Shown: positions 4,742 through 53,282 of the stretch, one piece after another
Layout: each line of letters opens with the position of its first letter
Position numbering within the stretch: position 1 is the stretch's first letter
Assembly: GCF_006345805.1 (NCBI RefSeq)
Contig: NW_021833707.1
Location: 1 to 56,212 of the forward strand
DNA: 56,212 nt
Direction of reading: 5' to 3'
DNA from: Octopus sinensis
Lineage: Eukaryota
The notes under the pieces: model-generated
Told to the model about the DNA's origin: nothing
Databases searched by the model: none
The model's input: only the letters and a program-made list of their open reading frames with translations
Translations under genes and position numbers: made by a program

Positions 4742-5142
4742 AAATACATCTGTTTCAACACACGGTTTCACATCAGGATTCTTGCAACACAAATTCACAA
4801 GCATACATACATATACATATATATATATTATCCTGTCAAGAGCTTATATGCGCCTTTATTAGACTATTTTTTTGGTCGTTGCACGATAATCACCATAAGC
4901 ATTATGCTTGCATAAAAATACCATATTATTATTTCAGGGTTGTGAACACGGCGCCGTATAAGAAAAAAATTCGTATATATATATATAACGCCCGGCTGAG
5001 ACTCTGACAGGTGCTGCCATTCCGAGTTCTATTGAATGATAATTAGTTTGCGATGGATTTAAGGTGGAATTTTATTGAATAAAATTTGGGCTTGTGGTAT
5101 TGCTTACACATTATTCATACATGTAGACCATTGTAATCAGGT

Positions 5143-5147
5143 GTATA

Positions 5148-5183
<36 letters not shown>

Positions 5184-5839
5184 TGTATATATGCATGTAT
5201 GTATATGTATATATATATGTATGTATATATATGTATATATATATGCATGTATATATATGTATATATATATGCATGTATATATATATGCATGTATGTATAT
5301 ATATATATATATATGCATGTATGTATATATATATATGCATGTATGTATATATATATATATGCATGTATGTATATATATATATATGCATGTATGTATATAT
5401 ATATATATGCATGTATGTATATATATATATATGCATGTATGTATATATATATATATGCATGTATGTATATATATATATGCATGTATGTATATATATATAT
5501 ATGCATGTATGTATATATATATATGCATGTATGTATATATATATATATGCATGTATGTATATCATATATATATGCATGTATGTATATAAATATATATATG
5601 CATGTATGTAATATATATATATATGCATGTATGTATATATATATATATATATGCATGTATGTAATATATATATATATATATGCATGTATGTATAGATATA
5701 TATATATGCAGGTATTGTATATATATAATATATATATGCATGTATGTATATATATATGCAGGTATGTATATATATATATATATATGCATGTATGTATATA
5801 TATATGCAGGTATGTATAATATATATATATGCATGAATG

Positions 5840-5886
<47 letters not shown>

Positions 5887-8042
5887 GCATGTATGAATGT
5901 ATATATGTATATATATATATGCATGTATATGTATATATATATATAATTGCATGTATATGTATATATATATATATATGCATGTATATGTATATATATATAT
6001 ATATGCATGTATGTATATATATATATATATTATATATTATGCATGTATGGTATGTATGTATATATATATATATATATATGCATGTATGTATATATATATA
6101 TATATATATATATGCATGTATGTTATATATTATATATATGCATGTATGTATATATATATATATATATATATGCATGTATGTATATATATATATATGCATG
6201 TATGTATATATATATATATAATGCCATGTATGTGTATATATATATATATATATGCATGTATGTGTATATATATATATATAATATGCATGTATGTGTATAT
6301 ATATATATATATATGCATGTATGTATATATATATAATGCATGTATGTGTATATATATATATATATGCATGTATGTATATATATATATATATGCATGTATG
6401 TATATATATATATATATGCATGTATGTGTATCTATATATATATGCATGTAGTATATATATATATATATGCATGTATGTATATATATATATATATATGCAT
6501 GTATGTATATATATATGCATGTATGTATATATATATATGCATGTATGTTATATAATATATATATGCATGTATGTATATATATATATATATGCATGTATGT
6601 ATATATATATATATATATGATGTATGTATATATATATATATATATGCATGTATGTATATATATATATATATATGCATGTATGTATATATATATATATATA
6701 TGCATGTATGTATATATATATATATATATGCATGTATGTATATATATATATATATATGCATGTATGTATATATATATATATATGCATGTATGTATATATA
6801 TATATATATATGCATGTATGTATATATATATATATATATGCATGTATGTATATATATAATATATATGCATGTATGTATATTATATATATATATGCATGTA
6901 TGTAATATATAATATATATATGCATGTATATATATATAATAATATATATGCATGTATATATATATATATATATATGCATGTATGTAATATCTATATATAT
7001 ATATGCATGTATGTATATATATATATATATATGCATGTATGTATATATTATATATATATGCATGTATGTATATATATATATATATATATGCATGTATGTA
7101 TATATATTTTATATATAGATGCATTATTATATATATATATATATATGCATGTATGTATATATATATATATATGACATGTATGTATAATATATATATATAT
7201 ATGCATGTATGTATATATATATATATATGCATGTATGTATATATATATATATATATATGCATGTATGTACATTATATATATATATATATGTATGTATATA
7301 ATATATATATGCATGTATGTATATATATATATATATGCATGTATGTAATATATATATATATATGCATGTATGTATAATATATATATATATATGCATGCAT
7401 GTATGTATGTATGTATATATATGTATGTATGTATGTATATATATGCATGCATGTATTTTATGTATATATATATATATGTATGAGTATATATATGCATGTA
7501 TGTATATATATATATGTATGTATGTATATAATGCATGTATGTATATATATATATATGTATGTATGTATGTATATATATATATGTATGTATGTATATATAT
7601 GCATGTATGTATATATATATATATGTATGTATGTATATATATATATGTATGTAGTATATATATATTATGTAGTATGTATATATATATATGTATGTATGTA
7701 TATATATGTATGTATGTATATATATATTATGTATGTATGTATATATATATATGTATGTATGTATATATATATATGTATGTATGTATATATATATATGTAT
7801 GTATGTTATATATATATGTATGTATGTATATATATATATGTATGTATGTATATATATATGTATGTATGTATGTATATATATATATGTATGTATGTATATA
7901 TATATATGTATGTATGTATATATATATATGTATGAATGTATGTATATATATGTATGTATGTATGTATATATATATGTATGTATGTATGTATGTATATATA
8001 TATGTATGTATGTATGTATATATATATGTATGTATGTATGTA

Positions 8043-8073
<31 letters not shown>

Positions 8074-9082
8074 ATATATATATGTATGTATGTATGTATG
8101 TATATATGTATGTATGTATGTATATATATATATGTATGTATGTATATATATATATGTATGTATGTATATATATATATGTATGTATGTATATATATATATG
8201 TATGTATGTATATATATATATGCATGTATGTATGTATATATATGCATGTATGTATGTATATATATGCATGTATGTATGTATGTATGTATATATATATATA
8301 TGCATGTATGTATGTATGTATGTATGTATATGCATGTATGTATGTATGTATATGCATGTATGTATGTATGTATATATATATATGCATGTATGTATGTATG
8401 TATATATATATATGCATGTATGTATGTATGTATATATATATGCATGTATGTATGTATGTATATATATATGCATGTATGTATGTATGTATATATATATATG
8501 CATGTATGTATGTATGTATATATATATGCATGTATGTATGTATGTATATATATATATGCATGTATGTATGTATGTATATATATATATGCATGTATGTATG
8601 TATGTATATGTATGTATGCATGTATGCATGTATGTATGTATGCATGTATGCATGTATGTATGCATGTATGTATGCATGTATGTATGCATGTATGTATGCA
8701 TGTATGTATATATATATGTATATATATATATGCATGTATGTATGTATATATATATATGCATGTATGTATGTATGTGTATGTATGTATATATATATATATG
8801 TGTATGTATATATATATATGCATGTATGTATGTATGTATATGTATGTATGTATATATATGTATGTATGTATATATGTATGTATATATATATGCATGTATA
8901 TATATATATATGCATGTATGTATGTATATATATATGCATGTATGTATGTATATATATATGCATGTATGTATGTATATATATGCATGTATGTATGTATATA
9001 TATGCATGTATGTATGTATATATATGCATGTATGTATGTATATATATATATGTATGTATATATATATATATATATATATATA
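5143..9082. repeat. ~3.9 kb compound microsatellite/minisatellite array of (TA)n-GCATGTATG and (TATG)n
   Basis: Directly visible; explains all YIYIHT/MYVC ORFs in this interval. Confidence 0.98.
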
Positions 9083-12677: not shown

Positions 12678-13030
12678 CAGAATGAGATAACAAATCCGAG
12701 GCTGTGAGGAGTTTTCTGAACATTTATAATATAATTTTCTCACAGCTATTTCTGGGATATTATGGATGTCCCTTCATCAGAGACGGTGTAAGGAAATATC
12801 TGAGTTCGAATTATTGTCGAAAAGGAGGAGACAGGGAATAGAGAGGGACATAAGAGAATTAAAGTAGAAATAAGATATATTAAGATATTGTATTTGCATG
12901 CTAATACAAGAACCACATTAACCTCCTCACTCGTATCATTATCAAACCAGGAATTTAACTACGATCTATCCATAGCACTTATCATTACCTGACACTCTTT
13001 AGGTCTTCTAGATACCAATACATCTCATAC
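12673..13030 (-). mobile_element. Probable PLE terminal (pseudo-LTR) fragment between two (TA)n tracts
   Basis: Starts directly after (TA)n; contains a degenerate minimal hammerhead and a purine-rich tract, like the arms of the large element. Confidence 0.5.
12738..12783 (-). ncRNA. Degenerate minimal type I hammerhead ribozyme
   Basis: Minus strand TCT-CTGATGA-A-GGGACAT-CCATA-ATATCCC-A-GAAA-T-AGCT-G-TG-AGA: stem I TCT/AGA, stem II GGGACAT/ATATCCC, palindromic AGCT loop. The triplet is GUG, which is non-canonical. Confidence 0.6.
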
Positions 13031-13195
13031 ATATATATATATATATTATATATATATATATATATATTCAAAAAGCAATAAAGATTCAAGTTAATTTAAA
13101 TGAATTTACTTGAATATGGTACCTAACTTAGATGCACCAAAAAAAAAAAAAAAACTATACTGTTTTAACAATACAGTAATGTGGGGTGATTATAA

Positions 13196-14820
13196 GCGAG
13201 AAAGAAGCAACAAGAATGGATAGGTTTTTAGTACAATCGTTTCATACAAGGACAGGCTTTATTAAAAGTTGTAAAAATTACAGCATATAAACGTGTCCCG
13301 TACTCATCAGCTAAAATACATGTGAGTTCTCTAGACATCCTAGTGGTTGAGGCTATACTCATGAAGTAATGTAGATAATTAAGTAACATAAACAGATTTC
13401 CAAAGTTCATTAAAGTTCCTTAAAGATGATGTACAGTCTTATCACAGAATTTTAAAAAAGTTCTAATAGCATCACAGAGAAGGTGACCTAATCCATAGAG
13501 CACATATGAATTTCCAGAGATATGATGAGGGATTACATACTCACAGAAGACAAATTTATCCATTGTTAATCACAATGAGGTGGGTCTCAATTCCTGCTTA
13601 TTAGCATTACAGAGAGGGTGAATTAATCCTTTGTATAGATGCACAATTTCCAATGGTGTAGATGTAAGTTTCCAGAGAAATGAAGAGGAATTTCATATTC
13701 ACAGGCGATAAATTTATCAATGGTTGAACACAATGAGGTAGGTATCAATTCTTGTTATATGATTAGGTATTTGCCACATTAATCACATTACTGCTATTTA
13801 CAAGAGGCTGTAGCTATTAACTTTTAAATGCTGAAGGGCTTTCTAGAGAGGCCAAGAATAGAAAGGGAAGGGAATAGAAGAAAAGAGAGAAAATAAAGGA
13901 GGAGGGAGCAAAAAAGGGGGGGAGGGGACTAAAAGAGAAGAGAAAAGGAAAAAGAGAATAAGAAGAAGAAACAGAAAAAAGAGAAAAGAGAAAGAAATAG
14001 GGAAAGAAGGGAAAAAATAAAAATAAAAAGAGGGTTCTAGTTATACAGACGAATTAGTAGACGGCAAGTCTGGTTTTAATTTACAGGCATCTAGGAACTA
14101 GAGGAGAATATTATTCTTTGGCCAGTAAAACAGCTAATTATTGCTGTTGAAATCAGCTATGAATTTAAAGAGAATCTAAAGAGATAACACAGTCAGGGGT
14201 TTAGGGGTCAGATGCTAAAATCAAAAGAAAATACATTAGGAAAATCTAAGTATAATCCTATCAAAAAGTCAATAAAATTTACTTATTTAATTTATTCATT
14301 TTATTGTCTTAAGGAGTTGCCGTTATTATTCATACATTGACGGACTACAGGTCAAATCTTAGAAGGTCATTTACAAGGCGTTAGGGGATTGTCTATCATA
14401 ATGAAGATAATCATATTATCACCGAGGGGGTAGCCTTATTTATTTAATTTTGAAATAGAATTATGGGGCTATAGTATCTCATTTATTTTATTAGAGTTAT
14501 GCTACTTAAATTAGATTAAGTTAGGAATTAAAATTAAAAATTACAATTAAGATTTAAAATTAAGAATTTAAAAATTATGAGTTTGAAATTAAATAAAGCC
14601 TCAATTAAGCAGCGTATAAGTACTATTCATTTCCCTGTTCTCAAAAAACTGATGCAGATATAAGGAAAAAGATAACTGTAGTGTGAGAACTCTTAGTTAT
14701 CTACTTAAAGCAGTGCTATACTAGTAGAAATCAAGTTATATCTATCTATCTAGTTACGGCTATTCTAATCATTTAAAATATTTTAAAGTCTTCAATTTAG
14801 CGTGGACACAAACTTGACCT
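13196..14820. repeat. Left arm of the ~1.63 kb inverted repeat (PLE 3' pseudo-LTR)
   Basis: Runs GCGAGAAAGAAGC...CACAAACTTGACCT; reverse complement of 15565-17191 with only scattered substitutions and homopolymer indels; the identical 60-aa ORF appears at 13228-13410(-) and 16977-17159(+). Confidence 0.97.
13226..13316 (-). ncRNA. Minimal type I hammerhead ribozyme (left-arm copy, sense to the ORF)
   Basis: Reverse complement of 17071-17161: TTTTAG-CTGATGA-stem II-GAAAC-GATT-GTA-CTAAAA. Confidence 0.8.
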
Positions 14821-15551
14821 AGTTCGATATGATTATTCAATAAGTTTCTATGTCTTCTATGCTTTAGAATTTCATACGTCTCCATGGAGCATAGTTGGCA
14901 ACCAACCCTACTATTTTTATACGGAATTGCTCTCCTAACTATTTCCCAATTAAGGTTATAATTTTTATTATTATTTTTGAGTTCCCAGATTTTGTTTGAA
15001 AGTGTGGTGGTACCAGCTTTATGACGTAATTTAAAAGACGAGATGTGATTTCTAACTCTGGCTAGAAAATTAATTGTACATCCAACGTAAAGATATTTGT
15101 TATTCTCCGTGGATATGGTACATTTATAGATTACATTATTTTCCCCACATAGACCAGGTGCCGGGCATTTTGATTTTATTCTACACTTACACACAGGAGG
15201 AGCAACTTCAGGCTTTGGATTATTCTTGGGTAGATTTCTTAGGTTCCTATTATTTTGATTATCATTTCTATAGTTGGTGCTGATATCTAAAGTATTGCTA
15301 TTATTTATTGATCCTTCAGCTTCATCATTTAGGTTTAAAGTCCTACCATGATTTCTTATATTATTGGTAATGTTACTATTATTGTTAGTCTTTTTATCCG
15401 ACTGCATATTGCTGTTATAAATATCACTGATATTTTCATTCTCCTTATTTTCTCCATTTGCCTTATATCTATTATTTCTATTATTAACATTATTACTTCT
15501 ATTAATATCGGCATTGTTATTATTACTATTAATGTTAATGTTATTAGTCAT
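14769..15551 (-). CDS. Penelope-type GIY-YIG endonuclease domain preceded by an Asn-rich linker (RT absent)
   Basis: Uninterrupted 260-aa ORF: CKCRIKSKCP...C, NVIYKC (GIY box), YLYVGCT (YIG box), RVRNH, NWEIV, CQLCSME, LLN...CVH. The ATG is only 14 bp from the inversion junction, so this is probably the stump of a longer RT-EN ORF. Confidence 0.85.
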   Translation of the reverse strand: MTNNININSNNNNADINRSNNVNNRNNRYKANGENKENENISDIYNSNMQSDKKTNNNSNITNNIRNHGRTLNLNDEAEGSINNSNTLDISTNYRNDNQNNRNLRNLPKNNPKPEVAPPVCKCRIKSKCPAPGLCGENNVIYKCTISTENNKYLYVGCTINFLARVRNHISSFKLRHKAGTTTLSNKIWELKNNNKNYNLNWEIVRRAIPYKNSRVGCQLCSMETYEILKHRRHRNLLNNHIELGQVCVHAKLKTLKYFK

Positions 15552-15564
15552 TCTGTGGTTACTA

Positions 15565-17191
15565 AGGTCAAGTTTGTGTCCACGCTAAATTGAAGACTTT
15601 AAAATATTTTAAATGATTAGAATAGCCGTAACTAGATAGATAGATATAACTTGATTTCTACTAGTATAGCACTGCTTTAAGTAGATAACTAAGAGTTCTC
15701 ACACTACAGTTATCTTTCTCCTTATATCTGCATCAGTTTTTTGAGAACAGGGAAATGAATAGTACTTATACGCTGCTTAATTGAGGCTTATTTAATTTCA
15801 AACTCATAATTTTTAAATTCTTAATTTTAAATCTTAATTGTAATTTTTAATTTTAATTCCTAACTTAATCTAATTTAAGTAGCATAACTCTAATAAAATA
15901 AATGAGATACTATAGCCCCATAATTCTATTTCAAAATTAAATAAATAAGGCTACCCCCTCGGTGATAATATGATTATCTTCATTATGATAGACAATCCCC
16001 TAACACCTTGTAAATGACCTTCTAAGATTTGACCTGTAGTCCGTCAATGTATGAATAATAACGGCAACTCCTTAAGACAATAAAATGAATAAATTAAATA
16101 AGTAAATTTTATTGACTTTTTGATAAGATTATACTTAGATTTTCCTAATGTATTTTCTTTTGATTTTAGCATCTGACCCCTAAACCCCTGACTGTGTTAT
16201 CTCTTTAGATTCTCTTTAAATTCATAGCTGATTTCAACAGCAATAAATTAGCTGTTTTACTGGCCAAAGAATAATATTCTCCTCTAGTTCCTAGATGCCT
16301 GTAAATTAAAACCAGACTTGCCGTCTACTAATTCGTCTGTATAACTAGAACCCTCTTTTTTATTTTTATTTTTTCCCTTCTTTCCCTATTTCTTTCTCTT
16401 TTCTCTTTTTTCTGTTTCTTCTTCTTATTCTCTTTTTCCTTTTCTCTTCTCTTTTAGTCCCCTCCCCCCCTTTTTTGCTCCCTCCTCCTTTATTTTCTCT
16501 CTTTTCTTCTATTCCCTTCCCTTTCTATTCTTGGCCTCTCTAGAAAGCCCTTCAGCATTTAAAAGTTAAATAGCTACAGCCTCTTGTAAATAGCAGTAAT
16601 GTGATTAATGTGGCAAATACCTAATCATATAACAAGAATTGATACCTACCTCATTGTGTTCAACCATTGATAAATTTATCGCCTGTGAATATGAAATTCC
16701 TCTTCATTTCTCTGGAAACTTACATCTACACCATTGGAAATTGTGCATCTATACAAAGGATTAATTCACCCTCTCTGTAATGCTAATAAGCAGGAATTGA
16801 GACCCACCTCGTTGTGATTAACAATGGATAAATTTGTCTTCTGTGAGTATGTAATCCCTCATCATATCTCTGGAAATTCATATGTGCTCTATGGATTAGA
16901 TCACCTTCTCTGTGATGCTATTAGAACTTTTTTAAAATTCTGTGATAAGACTGTACATCATCTTTAAGGAACTTTAATGAACTTTGGAAATCTGTTTATG
17001 TTACTTAATTATCTACATTACTTCATGAGTATAGCCTCAACCACTAGGATGTCTAGAGAACTCACATGTATTTTAGCTGATGAGTACGGGACACGTTTAT
17101 ATGCTGTAATTTTTACAACTTTTAATAAAGCCTGTCCTTGTATGAAACGATTGTACTAAAAACCTATCCATTCTTGTTGCTTCTTTCTCGC
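15565..17191. repeat. Right arm of the ~1.63 kb inverted repeat (inverted pseudo-LTR copy)
   Basis: Begins AGGTCAAGTTTGTGTCCACGC, which duplicates the last ~17 codons of the ORF; ends TTCTTTCTCGC followed by (TA)n. Confidence 0.97.
17071..17161 (+). ncRNA. Minimal type I hammerhead ribozyme (right-arm copy)
   Basis: Stem I TTTTAG (17071-76)/CTAAAA (17156-61); CTGATGA 17077-83; stem II GTACGGGAC...GTCCTTGTAT; GAAA 17144-47; C-GATT-G mini stem III; GUA triplet 17153-55. Confidence 0.8.
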
Positions 17192-18676
17192 GTATATATA
17201 TATATATATATGTGTGTATGTGTGTGTGTCTATGCGTATATGTATGTATATATATTTTCGTGTGCGTGTGTTCCCCAGTATATGAGACTCTTAAAATGTT
17301 GAAAATATAATTATTAATCTCAGATGCGTGTCAAAGATAATTATAAATTTCGCATCAATCGTGAGGTAATGAACTGTGTGAAAGGTAAAAAAAAATAAAA
17401 CCAAAAAACAGAACATCTTTAATGCATTATGTGATTATACATTCCTGTGTTCAACATTTTAGGAAAATGGTCATATTTATTATTTTAGTACGTGAAATTA
17501 TAAAGTGAAGAGCGGACATTGAAGCGAACATCTCTGATACTCATTTATAAAGAAATAAATGAACCATCAACAATTCCAAACAGATTTGACAGAGAATACA
17601 AAAGGATTATTTTATATTAATTGTTTGTTAATGATTATATTTTTCGACAGAAAATATTCTGGGTCTCTAAGAATACGTGAATAAAATGACAATGCCAGCA
17701 TTGATTATTGCCATCATTACTTTATCATAAAGACAGTTTACTATTTTAAAGGTTTAATATACGACTTCATTAAATTATTAGATATATTCTTTATGAAAGA
17801 TGTCCCTAAGAAACAATGTAGATCTTAGATATCTTAGTTCTCTAATGAATATGTAATATTTTATAGAAAATAATGCTGCAAAATTTAAACACCATTTTTC
17901 AAATCTTTTAGACATATTCTGTCAGTTAAGTAATATTATAGTCTGCAATAGAGCGACAAATGGTTATGTTTATAATTGACATAACCGTACACTAAATGTG
18001 CTGAGAGTTGTGATCCTAAAGACATTAAATCTATGAGACTATTCACTGCCACCAAAATGAAGACAGAAAGAAAGCTTAATTTTTCTGAAAATATTGTTAC
18101 AAACGATAGTCACGGGAGCACATTTTCCCTTCAGGATATATTTTCATCCAAGCCAAAAGTTAAAGGGAAAGGTGAGATTGCACAGGCAATAAAAAGATTA
18201 TCAGTGAGATGAAAATAAGATAAAGACGCATCAGAATAACCCCATGAATAAAGAAAACAAACTGGGAATAAACGAGGTAATTATGAATGACAGGATTCTG
18301 ATGCAGTGAATGTCGTTGGAAAAGGTATGTTTAGGGCATGCGGTGCCAAGTGGAAATGAAATGAAATTGCGAATTAGAGGATTTCCTACAAGATTTGTTG
18401 CGTAGAAATACCCGTCACTTGAAACAGCGTATGACACTTTATTGTAAACAGATCTGATAAACTAGATGTAATTTGGGAGGCAAATCAGCTTGTACTCTGT
18501 GCTATGCACGAACTTAATCTATTGTTTTATGTATAGACCGATAAAAATTGTCATTTGTTTTGCAGTGAGTGACATTTTCTATGTAATGTATACATACGCT
18601 CATGGGCATATGGCGTAGTGGTTAAGAGCGCGGGCTACTAATCCCAAGATTCCGAGTTCGATTCCAGGCATTGACC

Positions 18677-42685: not shown

Positions 42686-44129
42686 ATCGTTGTAGAGGGA
42701 CAGTGATCAGTAATGTAGTTTGGCTGGCAGGCACAATGGAATCCGTTGGAATGTCGCTAGCTGTGAAGCTATGTGGTGGTCTTATATGATTCACGTTTTC
42801 ATTTTTGTTCATAGAGTTGGGAAGAAGGTTAATTTTCGATTTTTCAATAAAGTTACAGTGAGTTACTAACCTTCTTTCTATGTTCTGCAAATGCTGCTTG
42901 TTGGCATAGTTGCTTCGCATTAAAATGATTTAATTCTGGCTGCAGATCGTCCTAATATGATTTCAGTTGTTTCATACAGCCAACAGCGGGGTTTTTTGCT
43001 TCGCTTTTTCGTAGCAGTTAAATAAATCATTATTCAATTCATAACTCCAAGAGAAATGAGTTTTGTAGTTACGGTTTCTTCTATAACTACAGCTAGAAAG
43101 AATTTGTTTACCTGTGGAGCTGTTGTTTTCTGTTCCTCAATTGTGTTGTTGTTGGTGCTGTCTCCACTTATGTTGTTTGTAGTAGCTCTCAGCATGCTAA
43201 ATTCACGTTTCAGTCGAAATTCACTACGATCATGAATAAAAGCCTCCCTCAGTTAATTCATCTTGATATCAACCAGTTATTTATGAAGGCTGATAGTTGT
43301 GGCTTCAAAGCTGGACATAGTATTCATCGGATTTTCGATAGTCTCCAACGTCAAATACACGACTTGTCACTTCGAATATGTGTGTATGTATGTATGTATG
43401 TATGTATGCAAAAATGTATGTATGTCTTTATGAATATGTACGTATTTTATTCCCAAATTTCTATATTATTTTTTATATCTTCTTCCGTTTCTGACCATTT
43501 CTTTGAATCATTACTTCTGCTGCTAAGATTTTATTTTCCCTCTCCTCATTTCAATTGTGAAGTCATTTCGATTATATCTTATTTTCCTATTTATTTATTT
43601 ATTTATTTATTTATTTATATACTTATTTATTTATCTATTACTACTTTCAAATGCACATCTACCTAACCCAAATATCTTCCCGTATGTTCAAGAGTTCATT
43701 TATCTACTCATCTGCTATCTTCTCTATTGAAAATTTTCTGTAGAAGTCTTTAGCCATTCTAACAATCACCTCCCCGCCCAACTTCGCTCTCCACCCCACC
43801 TCCAATCAAAACATACGCTTTATTTGCTCTTTTTTATTATTCTTTACTTTTCTTTTGTTTTCTTTTCACTTACCTTCCTGTTTCTCTTACTTTCTTTACT
43901 CTTTTTGCTTCCTTCTTTTCATATTTATCGCATCTTCCCCCCACCGCCATCCACTACGACAGGATTCCTAAATATCGATATCTGTAAATTCCATCATAAC
44001 TGTCCATTACTGAGGTTCATCTACAGGCGAAACTTTGAGCAGCACCAATCTAATTCGACTAGAACAAAAAATTAAATATAGATAATCACTTATATACGTA
44101 CATATCTACACACACACACACACACATAC

Positions 44130-45699: not shown

Positions 45700-46150
45700 A
45701 CTGGAACTTACTGTGTGAAGAAGAAAAATTTATCAGCAGCCCTTATTGTTTTGGATTTTACAAATGCATTTGATTCGATCCATTTAGGGAAAATGGGAGA
45801 GTTATTGCCAGCATATGGAATTCCTGGAAAAACTTGAATGATATCATAATGTTTTATCAGAAATAGATACAGCACGGATGCGGATGCTACTTGGAGTGAT
45901 ACCCTCTTTATATCCTTTCCTAATATGCCAAGATTATGTTCTAAGGAAAGCTCTGGACTCAAACTTCACAGCCATATTTAACAGAAAAGAAGTGAAAAAT
46001 ATCGTGCAAAGAAAATTACTGAAGTTGCTTGTGCCAATGGTCAGGCAAGGGTCAGTGATAACATGGAAGATGTCAGTATCTTTCAACATTTACTGGAGAA
46101 AAATTCTAGACTACATATCAATGCTGCGAAAACAAAACATAACCCTTACA
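45700..46150 (+). pseudogene. Non-LTR reverse transcriptase fragment (RTE-like)
   Basis: KNLSAALIVLDFTNAFDSIHLGKM..LLPAYGIP (DFxKAFDSI motif), PFLICQDYVLRKALD, KITEVACANG (decayed YADD region), LHINAAKTK; frameshifted. Confidence 0.85.
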
Positions 46151-46397
46151 ACTGTAATGCACTCACACATACACACACACATACGTGCAAACATACACAC
46201 ATACATACACACGCATGTGTGTTTGTCTGTGTTGTTATGTGTGTGTTGTTATTTGTTTGCTTGTGTGTGTGTGTTATTTGTTTGTCTGTGTGTTGTTTGT
46301 GTGTGTGTGTGTGTGTGTGTATCTTTATATGTGTGAGTATGGGTGTGTTTGTGTGTTCAAATTGAATGTATATGATCACAGATACAGCCAAGAATAC

Positions 46398-51460: not shown

Positions 51461-51708
51461 TATATATGTAAATACATATACACATAAACAAAACACTCAT
51501 ACCGTTAAGCTAAGATCAATGAAATGTACTGCATCGAGAGGGGCATAAATATCTTTTTCTCTACACAGTATAAAGATAAAAATAGTTTCTTGCCATGAAG
51601 ACACGTGGCAAATAGATTTTTATAACGCGCTTTGTATCTCTAAAGCAGTCTCCGGCTCTGAGTTCATGTGCTCAGTATGAACACACGCACAAATGAGCAC
51701 ATACATAT

Positions 51709-51782
<74 letters not shown>

Positions 51783-51860
51783 AGGAATCTAAACAAACAA
51801 GAAAAATCAATAACGCGAGGACGTGGTACAAGTTATGTATTATCAGGAAAAGAAGGAAAT

Positions 51861-51924
<64 letters not shown>

Positions 51925-52085
51925 GCAAGCATAGCTGCGTGGTAAGAAGCTTGCTTCTTGAACACATGGTACTGGGCTCAGTTCCATGCGTGGCATCTTG
52001 GGCGAGTGACTTGTACTATTCGAGCCGAACAAAACCCTGTGTGTTGATTTGGTAGACCGAAAATGAAAGAAGCCCGTCGTATATA
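51925..52085 (+). mobile_element. SINE family A, 5' half
   Basis: TAGCTGCGTGGTAAGAAGCTTGCTT...GGCTCAGTTCC...GATTTGGTAGAC...AAAGAAGCCCGTCGT. Confidence 0.8.
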
Positions 52086-53282
52086 TGTGTGTATGTGTAA
52101 GTATTTTTTTTATTCGTTCGTGTTGCGTCAGAACATGACAGTGTAGTTGGTTTATATTCTTTATCTTGCTCGCAAATGTAGGTAATATGAAATTTACTGT
52201 ATCTAGGATGTTAAATACCTGGAATAAGTGGACGATGTCATTACATACTTTCGGTTGTTTTCTGTGGTTATATTTCAGATATGTAATTTTGTGGATAATG
52301 TTTTTTAAATATTTTTTCATTTTATAATAAAACCACGCTGTGAGAATCAAATTTAATACGAAATGTAGCAATAAGAAGTGTTGCAATGTTATTAAACAAA
52401 CGAGTCTTTTGACAGATTTAAAGCCAAGTGGAAGGGAAATTTCGAGTATGCTAATAAAGGCAACTAAAGTGTCGCCATTTTGGTCTTCTTATTTGAAATT
52501 TGTATTACGATTACAAATCCTTAAATCTTTGCCAAAAGCTTGCAGTATTGAAATTACACTTGCCAAAACCTGAATTGCCAATAACGTAGGCAAAATCTGT
52601 ATCCACTATTATTGGTATAGAAAGGTTTGAGTAGAATTATGTAGATATATTAATGAATTTATAATGACGGCGCATTCGTGAAGTGGAATTGTTATTGATC
52701 TAAACTTTTGTTCCGTGTCTGAACAGTAAAATGTAGTTTTAAATTGTACGAAGGTAAACTAAAAATACTTATATGTTGTGGCATGGTCGTTTAAGAGCTT
52801 CAATCCTTAACTATGTGGTTTCTATCTCATTGCCCGGTACACTTGGCAAATATCTTTTCGCGGTGCTCCGCATTAACAGAATCATCATGTGGGATATTTA
52901 CTATGAACTATGGTGTGCAGTTCCTCTTCTGGGTGGAATTACTTAATCCAGTGCCTGGCTTTGAAGGTCCGTCTAACAGGTTTGGTGCGTTTAGTGGAGA
53001 AACTCCAGTGAGAATTCATATCTCCCTTCGCAATAATGTCAGAATCTCTGGACATAACTTCATGATCTGCTTCATATGTGTGTTTGTGAACACATATAAG
53101 CTGTCTAGATAGACATTAACACACAGACACATACGGGGGCGAAATGATAAGAGGGAGAGGAGGAGGAGAGAGCTAAGAAGAGAGAAATAGGTTATGCGCA
53201 TATCTCTGTATGTGTGAATGCATATACCTTACAAATACACGCGCACACTCATAGACACATACTGGAACGAAATAATAAGAGT

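Follow-up and report, generated by a model that had tools for sequence, protein, structure and literature searches.

A long-stem type I hammerhead on both strands of a Penelope-like element in Octopus sinensis: predicted cleavage as a dimer and a mirror copy that likely arose in one insertion

A 56,212-nt stretch of the Octopus sinensis genome (assembly GCF_006345805.1, contig NW_021833707.1, positions 1 to 56,212; hereafter the window) carries the same candidate self-cleaving RNA twice, once on each strand and in mirror image. Do these two motifs form a working pair, or do they follow from the way in which a mobile element was inserted? We consider it very probable that the motif is a hammerhead of a Penelope-like element (PLE) that would cut as a dimer, and that the mirror copy came from one insertion in which an uncut RNA was likely copied twice.

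The motif at 17071-17161 (plus strand) lies in the inverted, short-ended arm of the element and is the reverse complement of 13226-13316, with 91/91 nt identical; the latter, on the minus strand, belongs to the tailed arm that runs in the sense of the open reading frame (ORF). The initial annotation had reported this identical copy, together with a complete core, and every part that it named is present: the 6-bp stem I (17071-17076 with 17156-17161), the CUGAUGA core (17077-17083), a long stem II, the GAAA core (17144-17147), and a C-G pair closing GAUU (17148-17153), followed by U 17154 and by A17 at 17155. The anatomy also bears out its placement of the cut, expected after 17155 on the plus strand and after 13232 on the minus strand. 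The stem II domain spans 60 nt (17084-17143) and comprises a G.U base pair, a lower stem of about 10 bp, and an upper part with a bulged middle and an apical 5-bp hairpin, in which compensatory change is found within the family. The near-palindromic stem III described earlier corresponds to the octamer 17147..17154 (plus strand), which is self-complementary with two G.U pairs and predicted to form the helix between the two molecules of a double hammerhead.

Scanned with a hammerhead descriptor, the window yields these two sites and no others, versus 0.01 per shuffled window (100 shuffles). The motif has the CUGANGA and GAAA core, an NUH site, three helices, and closure by stem I, as expected of a type I hammerhead; the basal stem II pair, 10.1-11.1, reads G.U in the window copy, not the usual G-C; among the 17 family representatives described below, 9 have G.U there and 8 have G-C. 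The label "minimal", applied in the initial annotation, does not hold: helix III with a tetraloop is present and no extra nucleotide separates position 9 from position 10.1, making the motif a hammerhead variant with a small palindromic helix III and not the published minimal form. Nor did Rfam, to which the annotation had looked for confirmation, return a hammerhead family in window 16500-17190 at E up to 10, in a second copy at E up to 5, or among the 150 of 489 whole-window matches listed, which were microsatellite-driven miRNA matches; the long stem II is the most likely reason for this miss. Taken alone, the motif folds no better than its own shuffles (z 0.0). That the two copies are identical adds no independent evidence: both sit inside arms that are 99.4% identical over 1633 nt. 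The sequence features of the motif support its reading as a PLE pseudo-LTR hammerhead of type I, with self-cleavage as a prediction.

The element itself is recognizable on the minus strand. A 5'-truncated ORF remnant (14769..15564) encodes an Asn-rich linker, CxCX5C, a GIY-YIG endonuclease (PF01541, E 0.0024, below the cut-off), CxxC, CxH, and a stop. It is followed by a 1.45-kb 3' untranslated region (13317..14768), in which a pyrimidine tract occurs and 90 nt are duplicated (13511-13601 and 13669-13758, 82% identity). The element in the window breaks off at about 15564 and lacks the RT; tandem copies elsewhere in the genome have a 4590-bp unit that includes it. In these, an ORF of about 2830-2840 nt starts 209 nt past the predicted cut, and its frames hold RWK, DKT, YRDD, CxCX5C, VIY/YVG, CxxC, and CxH; an internal CCHH is absent from the element frames. 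The order is RT, then a C-terminal GIY-YIG, with both Pfam scores below the cut-off; the ORF carries two Asn-rich inserts, and eleven homologous proteins share 34-48% identity. All retrieved copies are frameshifted, with no unbroken full ORF among them; two element copies are 24 gap openings apart, which may reflect assembly error. The traits of EN+ PLEs are all seen: partial tandems (upstream parts of 354-1289 nt), an inverted 5'-truncated copy, and a one-sided tail. By its motifs and (TA)n target, with likeness judged by eye, we assign the element to the Hydra clade of EN+ PLEs; the family is young and abundant. The initial annotation was thus right to place the hammerhead in a PLE pseudo-LTR, here the 3' repeat of a Hydra-clade element with a GIY-YIG remnant on the minus strand.

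Other assignments were considered and rejected. The endonuclease is C-terminal, whereas Naiad elements have an N-terminal GIY-YIG and no canonical hammerhead; Neptune and Nematis disagree in domain order and motifs; and a non-LTR retrozyme, a non-coding 150-450-bp tandem repeat, is set aside because the copy belongs to a protein-coding element. A related long-stem hammerhead family forms arrays of ~533-bp units, both tandem and head to head, at loci L168:1500-4900 and L174 (57.9 Mb, 93.1 Mb, same contig). No RT or endonuclease match was found in these two array loci, and this family is a retrozyme-like derivative.

Is the fold kept across the family? The genome holds 313 exact copies of the 91-mer (0 in the control) and about 6,500 pattern matches to such hammerheads. 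Looser search patterns, which fixed only the core and loop III, recovered several families with unrelated stems; from 90 loci of these searches we chose by hand 17 family or subfamily representatives, which are related sequences, for an analysis of covariation. Among them, 88.4% of the cells are paired versus 70.2% in shuffles, and covariation reaches 0.611 versus 0.257; none of 500 shuffles attains either value, and pairing drops to 32-47% when the registers are slid. Both sides change at 5 of 6 pairs in stem I, which lay outside the search pattern, and at 4 of 5 pairs in stem II. For the count of pairs altered on both sides, 29 of 500 shuffles attain the observed value, and just 73.5% of cells are paired in the apical hairpin. 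A stem II of 51-63 nt is kept in 9/9 folded representatives. At the level of these alignments, the hammerhead stems are shown to be maintained by compensatory change; the conservation of core and stems among family copies, on which the initial annotation had staked its reading, is borne out by the covariation of stems I and II.

The palindromic helix III raises the matter of how such a motif would cut. Its inner pair would close a 2-nt loop in a monomer and would form part of an 8-bp helix in a double hammerhead. Genome matches have A-U (3002), G-C (2092), G.U (1438), or A.C (70) at this position, with 1-4 in controls; the 8-bp dimer helix is computed at -5.8 to -10.0 kcal/mol for the three self-pairing states and at +0.3 kcal/mol for the A.C mismatch. 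The use of all three self-pairing states and the avoidance of the mismatch support dimer cleavage; the counts overstate this evidence, since CpG decay links the states and independent lineages are few. Folding of 9 representatives points the same way: the active monomer fold is the minimum in 0/9, helix III in the monomer never exceeds a probability of 0.024 (9/9), and the active dimer is the cofold minimum in 5/9. In the window copy, the active dimer lies within 0.9 kcal/mol of the minimum, a competing dimer being 0.9 kcal/mol more stable. By computation, then, helix III is palindromic and unstable as a monomer, as in dimer-dependent PLE hammerheads, and the models favour cleavage mainly as a dimer; the suggestion in the initial annotation that dimerization was probably needed is, on the loop III states and this folding, the favoured reading.

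The two copies cannot be each other's partners in one RNA, since they lie on opposite strands. They sit in an inverted repeat of 1633 nt (13191-14820 and 15565-17196), 99.4% identical with about 10 differences. The inverted arm (15565..17191, plus strand) matches 14820-13191 and stops at a short end at 17191; the other arm alone continues into a tail of about 120 nt (13063..13190, minus strand), whose sequence is that of the initial stretch of leader found ahead of the ORF in tandem copies. Between the window arms lie 744 unique nt; the head-to-head junction (15561..15565) has a 1-nt overlap and a 4-nt near-microhomology, and the target microsatellite flanks the insertion as (TA)n on the left (13030..13068) and on the right (17192..17211). 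Two details concern the ends: most short ends show G instead of the element's T ahead of the (TA)n run (corresponding to window 17192), perhaps through a target preference or priming slippage; and an A run in the tail (window 13139-13156) is about 8 nt longer than in most copies, giving a tail of 127 versus 119 nt.

This architecture recurs across the family, which has two fixed 3' ends, a short one 36 nt past the cut and a tailed one about 155 nt past it, both joining (TA)n; genome-wide we count 1026 tailed and 946 short ends. Head-to-head insertions, chosen through a ribozyme or end match on one arm, combine one short with one tailed arm in 31/31 cases, and in 42/42 in a larger, overlapping set (arms of at least 100 nt, junctions under 60 nt). 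A cruder test in several other families finds one long and one short arm in 17/23 pairs, with 5 of the 6 exceptions from one tandem-array family. Paired arms of the 42 insertions differ at common polymorphisms at 0.78 per kb versus 18.1 for shuffled pairs, a single template per insertion, and 25/42 junctions have overlaps of 1-7 nt. Two whole hammerheads occur in just 23/31 mirror pairs, and some miniature mirror insertions are without any hammerhead. The mirror copy is likely a by-product of one insertion that pasted the element end twice, which would also explain why the motifs face apart. It is not a functional pair and, as such, is ordinary: opposite-strand hammerhead pairs, inverted copies, and one-sided tails are already on record in the published text available to us (PMC4209133, PMC8557442, PMC3846280).

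What, then, does the cut do? We looked for a pile-up of 5' ends at the predicted cut, at +10, and at +15, and found no excess: 3 copies (4 matches) start exactly at the cut, 4 of 30 loci read (114 matches) start at +10, and 20 of 28 loci read start at +15, some of these being two arms of one insertion. A broader 5'-end control (2406 matches) was swamped by other subfamilies and left out of the counts. One locus (L062:1502-1537) has a 36-nt insertion that spans exactly the interval from cut to short end, an isolated instance that does not exceed background. Genomic copy ends are not set by cleavage at the predicted site. Since insertions end downstream of the cut, the 3' hammerhead of the template would have been uncut or re-ligated; together with the lack of a 5'-end pile-up at the cut, these 3' ends make uncut RNA the likely template.

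Several other accounts of the locus were weighed. That the inverted repeat is an assembly artefact of a small contig is extremely improbable: the contig is unplaced and only 56 kb, and many 1-nt indels separate the copies, but the arms differ in their ends and at about 10 positions, and the same layout is found at 41 other places. Selection for the two ribozymes as a pair, to trim the RNAs of the locus in sense and antisense, is very improbable. It is true that neither copy is damaged and that each has the right orientation for its strand; this intactness, however, follows from the youth of a family with 313 exact copies, and the second whole hammerhead is missing in 8/31 mirror pairs. Furthermore, a hammerhead paired with its mirror forms a duplex of -152 kcal/mol versus about -12 for the ribozyme fold, so that a read-through RNA would bury the ribozyme. 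A fold-back origin, in which one cDNA primes itself at a short palindrome or an antisense template does so, explains identical arms and shared template variants equally well; several junctions are short palindromes or 10-20-nt overlaps, and self-priming has been proposed for rotifer Penelopes (PMC3846280, in the text available). We nevertheless regard it as unlikely, because in 18/31 pairs the short-ended arm reaches further 5' while the tail is on the other arm, and copying a longer cDNA that lacks the tail cannot supply it; both arm orders occur, and the window arms are kept apart by the 744-nt unique stretch.

The remaining alternatives concern the ribozyme and its template. An efficient monomer, in which the long stem II would provide tertiary or protein contacts in place of the dimer, has in its favour the preservation of a 51-63-nt stem II in all nine folded representatives, a stem I pairing probability of about 0.65 in the monomer, and the good monomer cleavage of invertebrate retrozyme hammerheads that have a 2-bp helix III and a tetraloop (PMC7229834, available text). 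It is decidedly unlikely, given a monomer helix III probability that nowhere exceeds 0.024 and a self-complementary loop III that persists across families; according to the available text, published PLE hammerheads cleave weakly as dimers (PMC4209133), and the element protein is required for or assists cleavage of the PAc hammerhead (PMC11167929). A circular template deserves somewhat more credit while still falling on the doubtful side: the ribozyme would cut both ends of the unit, the RNA would be ligated and the hammerhead re-formed, and cDNAs of more than unit length and partial tandems would follow. The intact hammerhead upstream of insertion ends, the partial tandems with upstream parts of 354-1289 nt, and a leader helix that requires a tandem or circle to form behind the 3' hammerhead agree with such a template, which was also proposed in the accessible part of PMC4209133; on the other side, a linear read-through RNA from a tailed copy also holds both end sites, and no circle turned up in the contigs, a kind of data unable to reveal one.

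Behind the cut lies a folded leader. From cut to ORF start (L031:2622-2840, plus strand, 219 nt) it is computed to form one fold domain (z -6.0; -6.4 in a second family), with a 13-bp helix over the AUG start codon, and both insertion ends fall inside this domain. The tail part of the leader in the window is 13225-13063 (minus strand); tail-only copies cannot form the 13-bp AUG helix and have an alternative hairpin instead. Covariation of the leader, measured over two families (two sequences), is reached by 70 of 500 shuffles and is not significant, and when the tail alone is aligned over 12 sequences, two short helices emerge, in which both sides have changed at 1 of 11 pairs. In RNA viruses, type I hammerheads are reported to promote translation (PMC13725137, available text), which makes a role of the ribozyme in forming the 5' end of the mRNA plausible by analogy. 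A more far-reaching reading is possible, and we offer it tentatively: a two-part RNA module would join the hammerhead with its 51-63-nt stem II to a 210-nt, AUG-covering leader that contains both RT start sites, the translated RNA would owe its 5' end to the ribozyme, and a protein dimer would copy one uncut RNA once per site, hence one short and one tailed arm.

The explanation that we favour, dimer cleavage combined with a single insertion, builds on the observed element class, two ends, pairing of one short with one tailed arm, single template, microhomology joins, (TA)n targets, and conserved fold, and may be pictured as follows. The endonuclease would nick both strands of a (TA)n target, and each nick would prime cDNA at one of two fixed start sites in structured RNA just past the ribozyme. 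Two prematurely ended cDNAs would then be joined head to head by microhomology. The ribozyme would cut slowly, through a double hammerhead between same-sense copies of a tandem transcript or with help from protein, and its product would be a unit-length RNA starting 209 nt before the ORF; the ribozyme would not be needed to set the insertion ends. Read-through RNA of the locus would form a 1.6-kb hairpin that hides the ribozyme. In a separate observation at L031:6900-7360, three of four presumed-RNA runs (X1, X5, X13) have an excess of A>G or T>C, their RNA status being a guess. One contig among them has 8 differences, in a stretch where those listed are T>C changes that the deep run X16 lacks; runs X9 and X19 have no such excess. 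With guessed RNA status and unmatched DNA, the excess fits A-to-I editing of a hairpin RNA.

How much of this has precedent? We compare the element with the available text of the relevant papers. Like Hydra-clade PLEs (Craig et al. 2021, PMC8557442), it has a C-terminal GIY-YIG, RWK, DKT, CxCX5C, CxxC, and CxH, no CCHH, a (TA)n target, and a type I hammerhead near the 3' end with a palindromic helix III; the listing for the Hydra element Penelope-13_HM includes an inverted copy, hammerheads on either strand, and G.U at the base of stem II. Differences from that clade, as described there, are the two Asn-rich ORF inserts and the 1.45-kb 3' UTR, a unit of 4.59 kb against "generally <3 kb" (a typical and not a diagnostic value), a stem II domain that measures 60 nt where 26 Hydra rows have at most about 26 nt, and a tail of about 120 nt against 30-40 bp. 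Half cores separated by 35-50 nt are mentioned there for Naiad, and a 35-nt loop II for one spike-moss motif. PLE hammerheads as described by Cervera and De la Pena (2014, PMC4209133) share the type I form in a pseudo-LTR, a palindromic helix III variant, a predicted dimer, and dual opposite-strand motifs; unlike them, the octopus motif has no extra nucleotide 9/10.1, a G.U in place of the highly conserved G10.1-C11.1, and a much longer helix II.

The Poseidon element PAc of Anolis (Frangieh et al. 2024, PMC11167929) is reported, in the text available, to undergo cleavage on two strands and to use two internal start sites that bound a tail, with a ribozyme dispensable for insertion. The octopus element likewise has two fixed ends that bound a tail past the hammerhead, an AC-rich stretch at the start site, and no sign that the cut defines copy ends; the PAc ORF starts inside the hammerhead with the start sites in the ORF, whereas here the ORF lies 209 nt past the cut and both ends fall in a leader that is folded and non-coding. 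Rotifer Penelopes (Arkhipova et al. 2013, PMC3846280, available text) share the head-to-head inverted repeat, one-sided tail, microhomology junctions, and Asn-rich ORF inserts; their tail is 31 bp and optional, versus about 120 nt on exactly one arm in 42/42 here. Non-LTR retrozymes (Cervera and De la Pena 2020, PMC7229834; bioRxiv 10.64898/2026.07.22.740005; both as available) have in common the type I hammerhead and weak helix III; this copy, unlike them, belongs to a protein-coding element and is not a short tandem repeat. Hammerheads on both strands of PLEs, inverted insertions, and the G.U base are known already. In the literature searched we found no account of the 51-63-nt Hydra stem II, the 120-nt tail, the strict one-of-each rule, or the leader fold; long-stem variants may be present in Lunse et al. 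2017 or in the supplements of PMC4209133.

Elsewhere in the window lie other features: long degenerate TA/TG/CA microsatellite arrays at 5000-9080, 27500-28500, and 29300-29800, which give rise to spurious miRNA matches and long open frames, and, outside microsatellites, open frames at 51667-52488 (minus strand, 274 codons), 43097-43663 (plus strand, 189), and 45842-46333 (plus strand, 164).

The role of hammerheads in PLEs and the origin of inverted insertions are open questions in the field, as stated in the available text of PMC8557442 and PMC11167929. The long stem II escapes Rfam, so that thousands of such ribozymes, about 6,500 by pattern match, would be missed by standard annotation. 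On the questions above, this octopus family provides natural statistics: head-to-head insertions strictly pair a short arm with a tailed one, both arms share a template, and ends are not enriched at the cut. It also supplies defined RNAs, the long-stem hammerhead and the folded leader, for direct assays.
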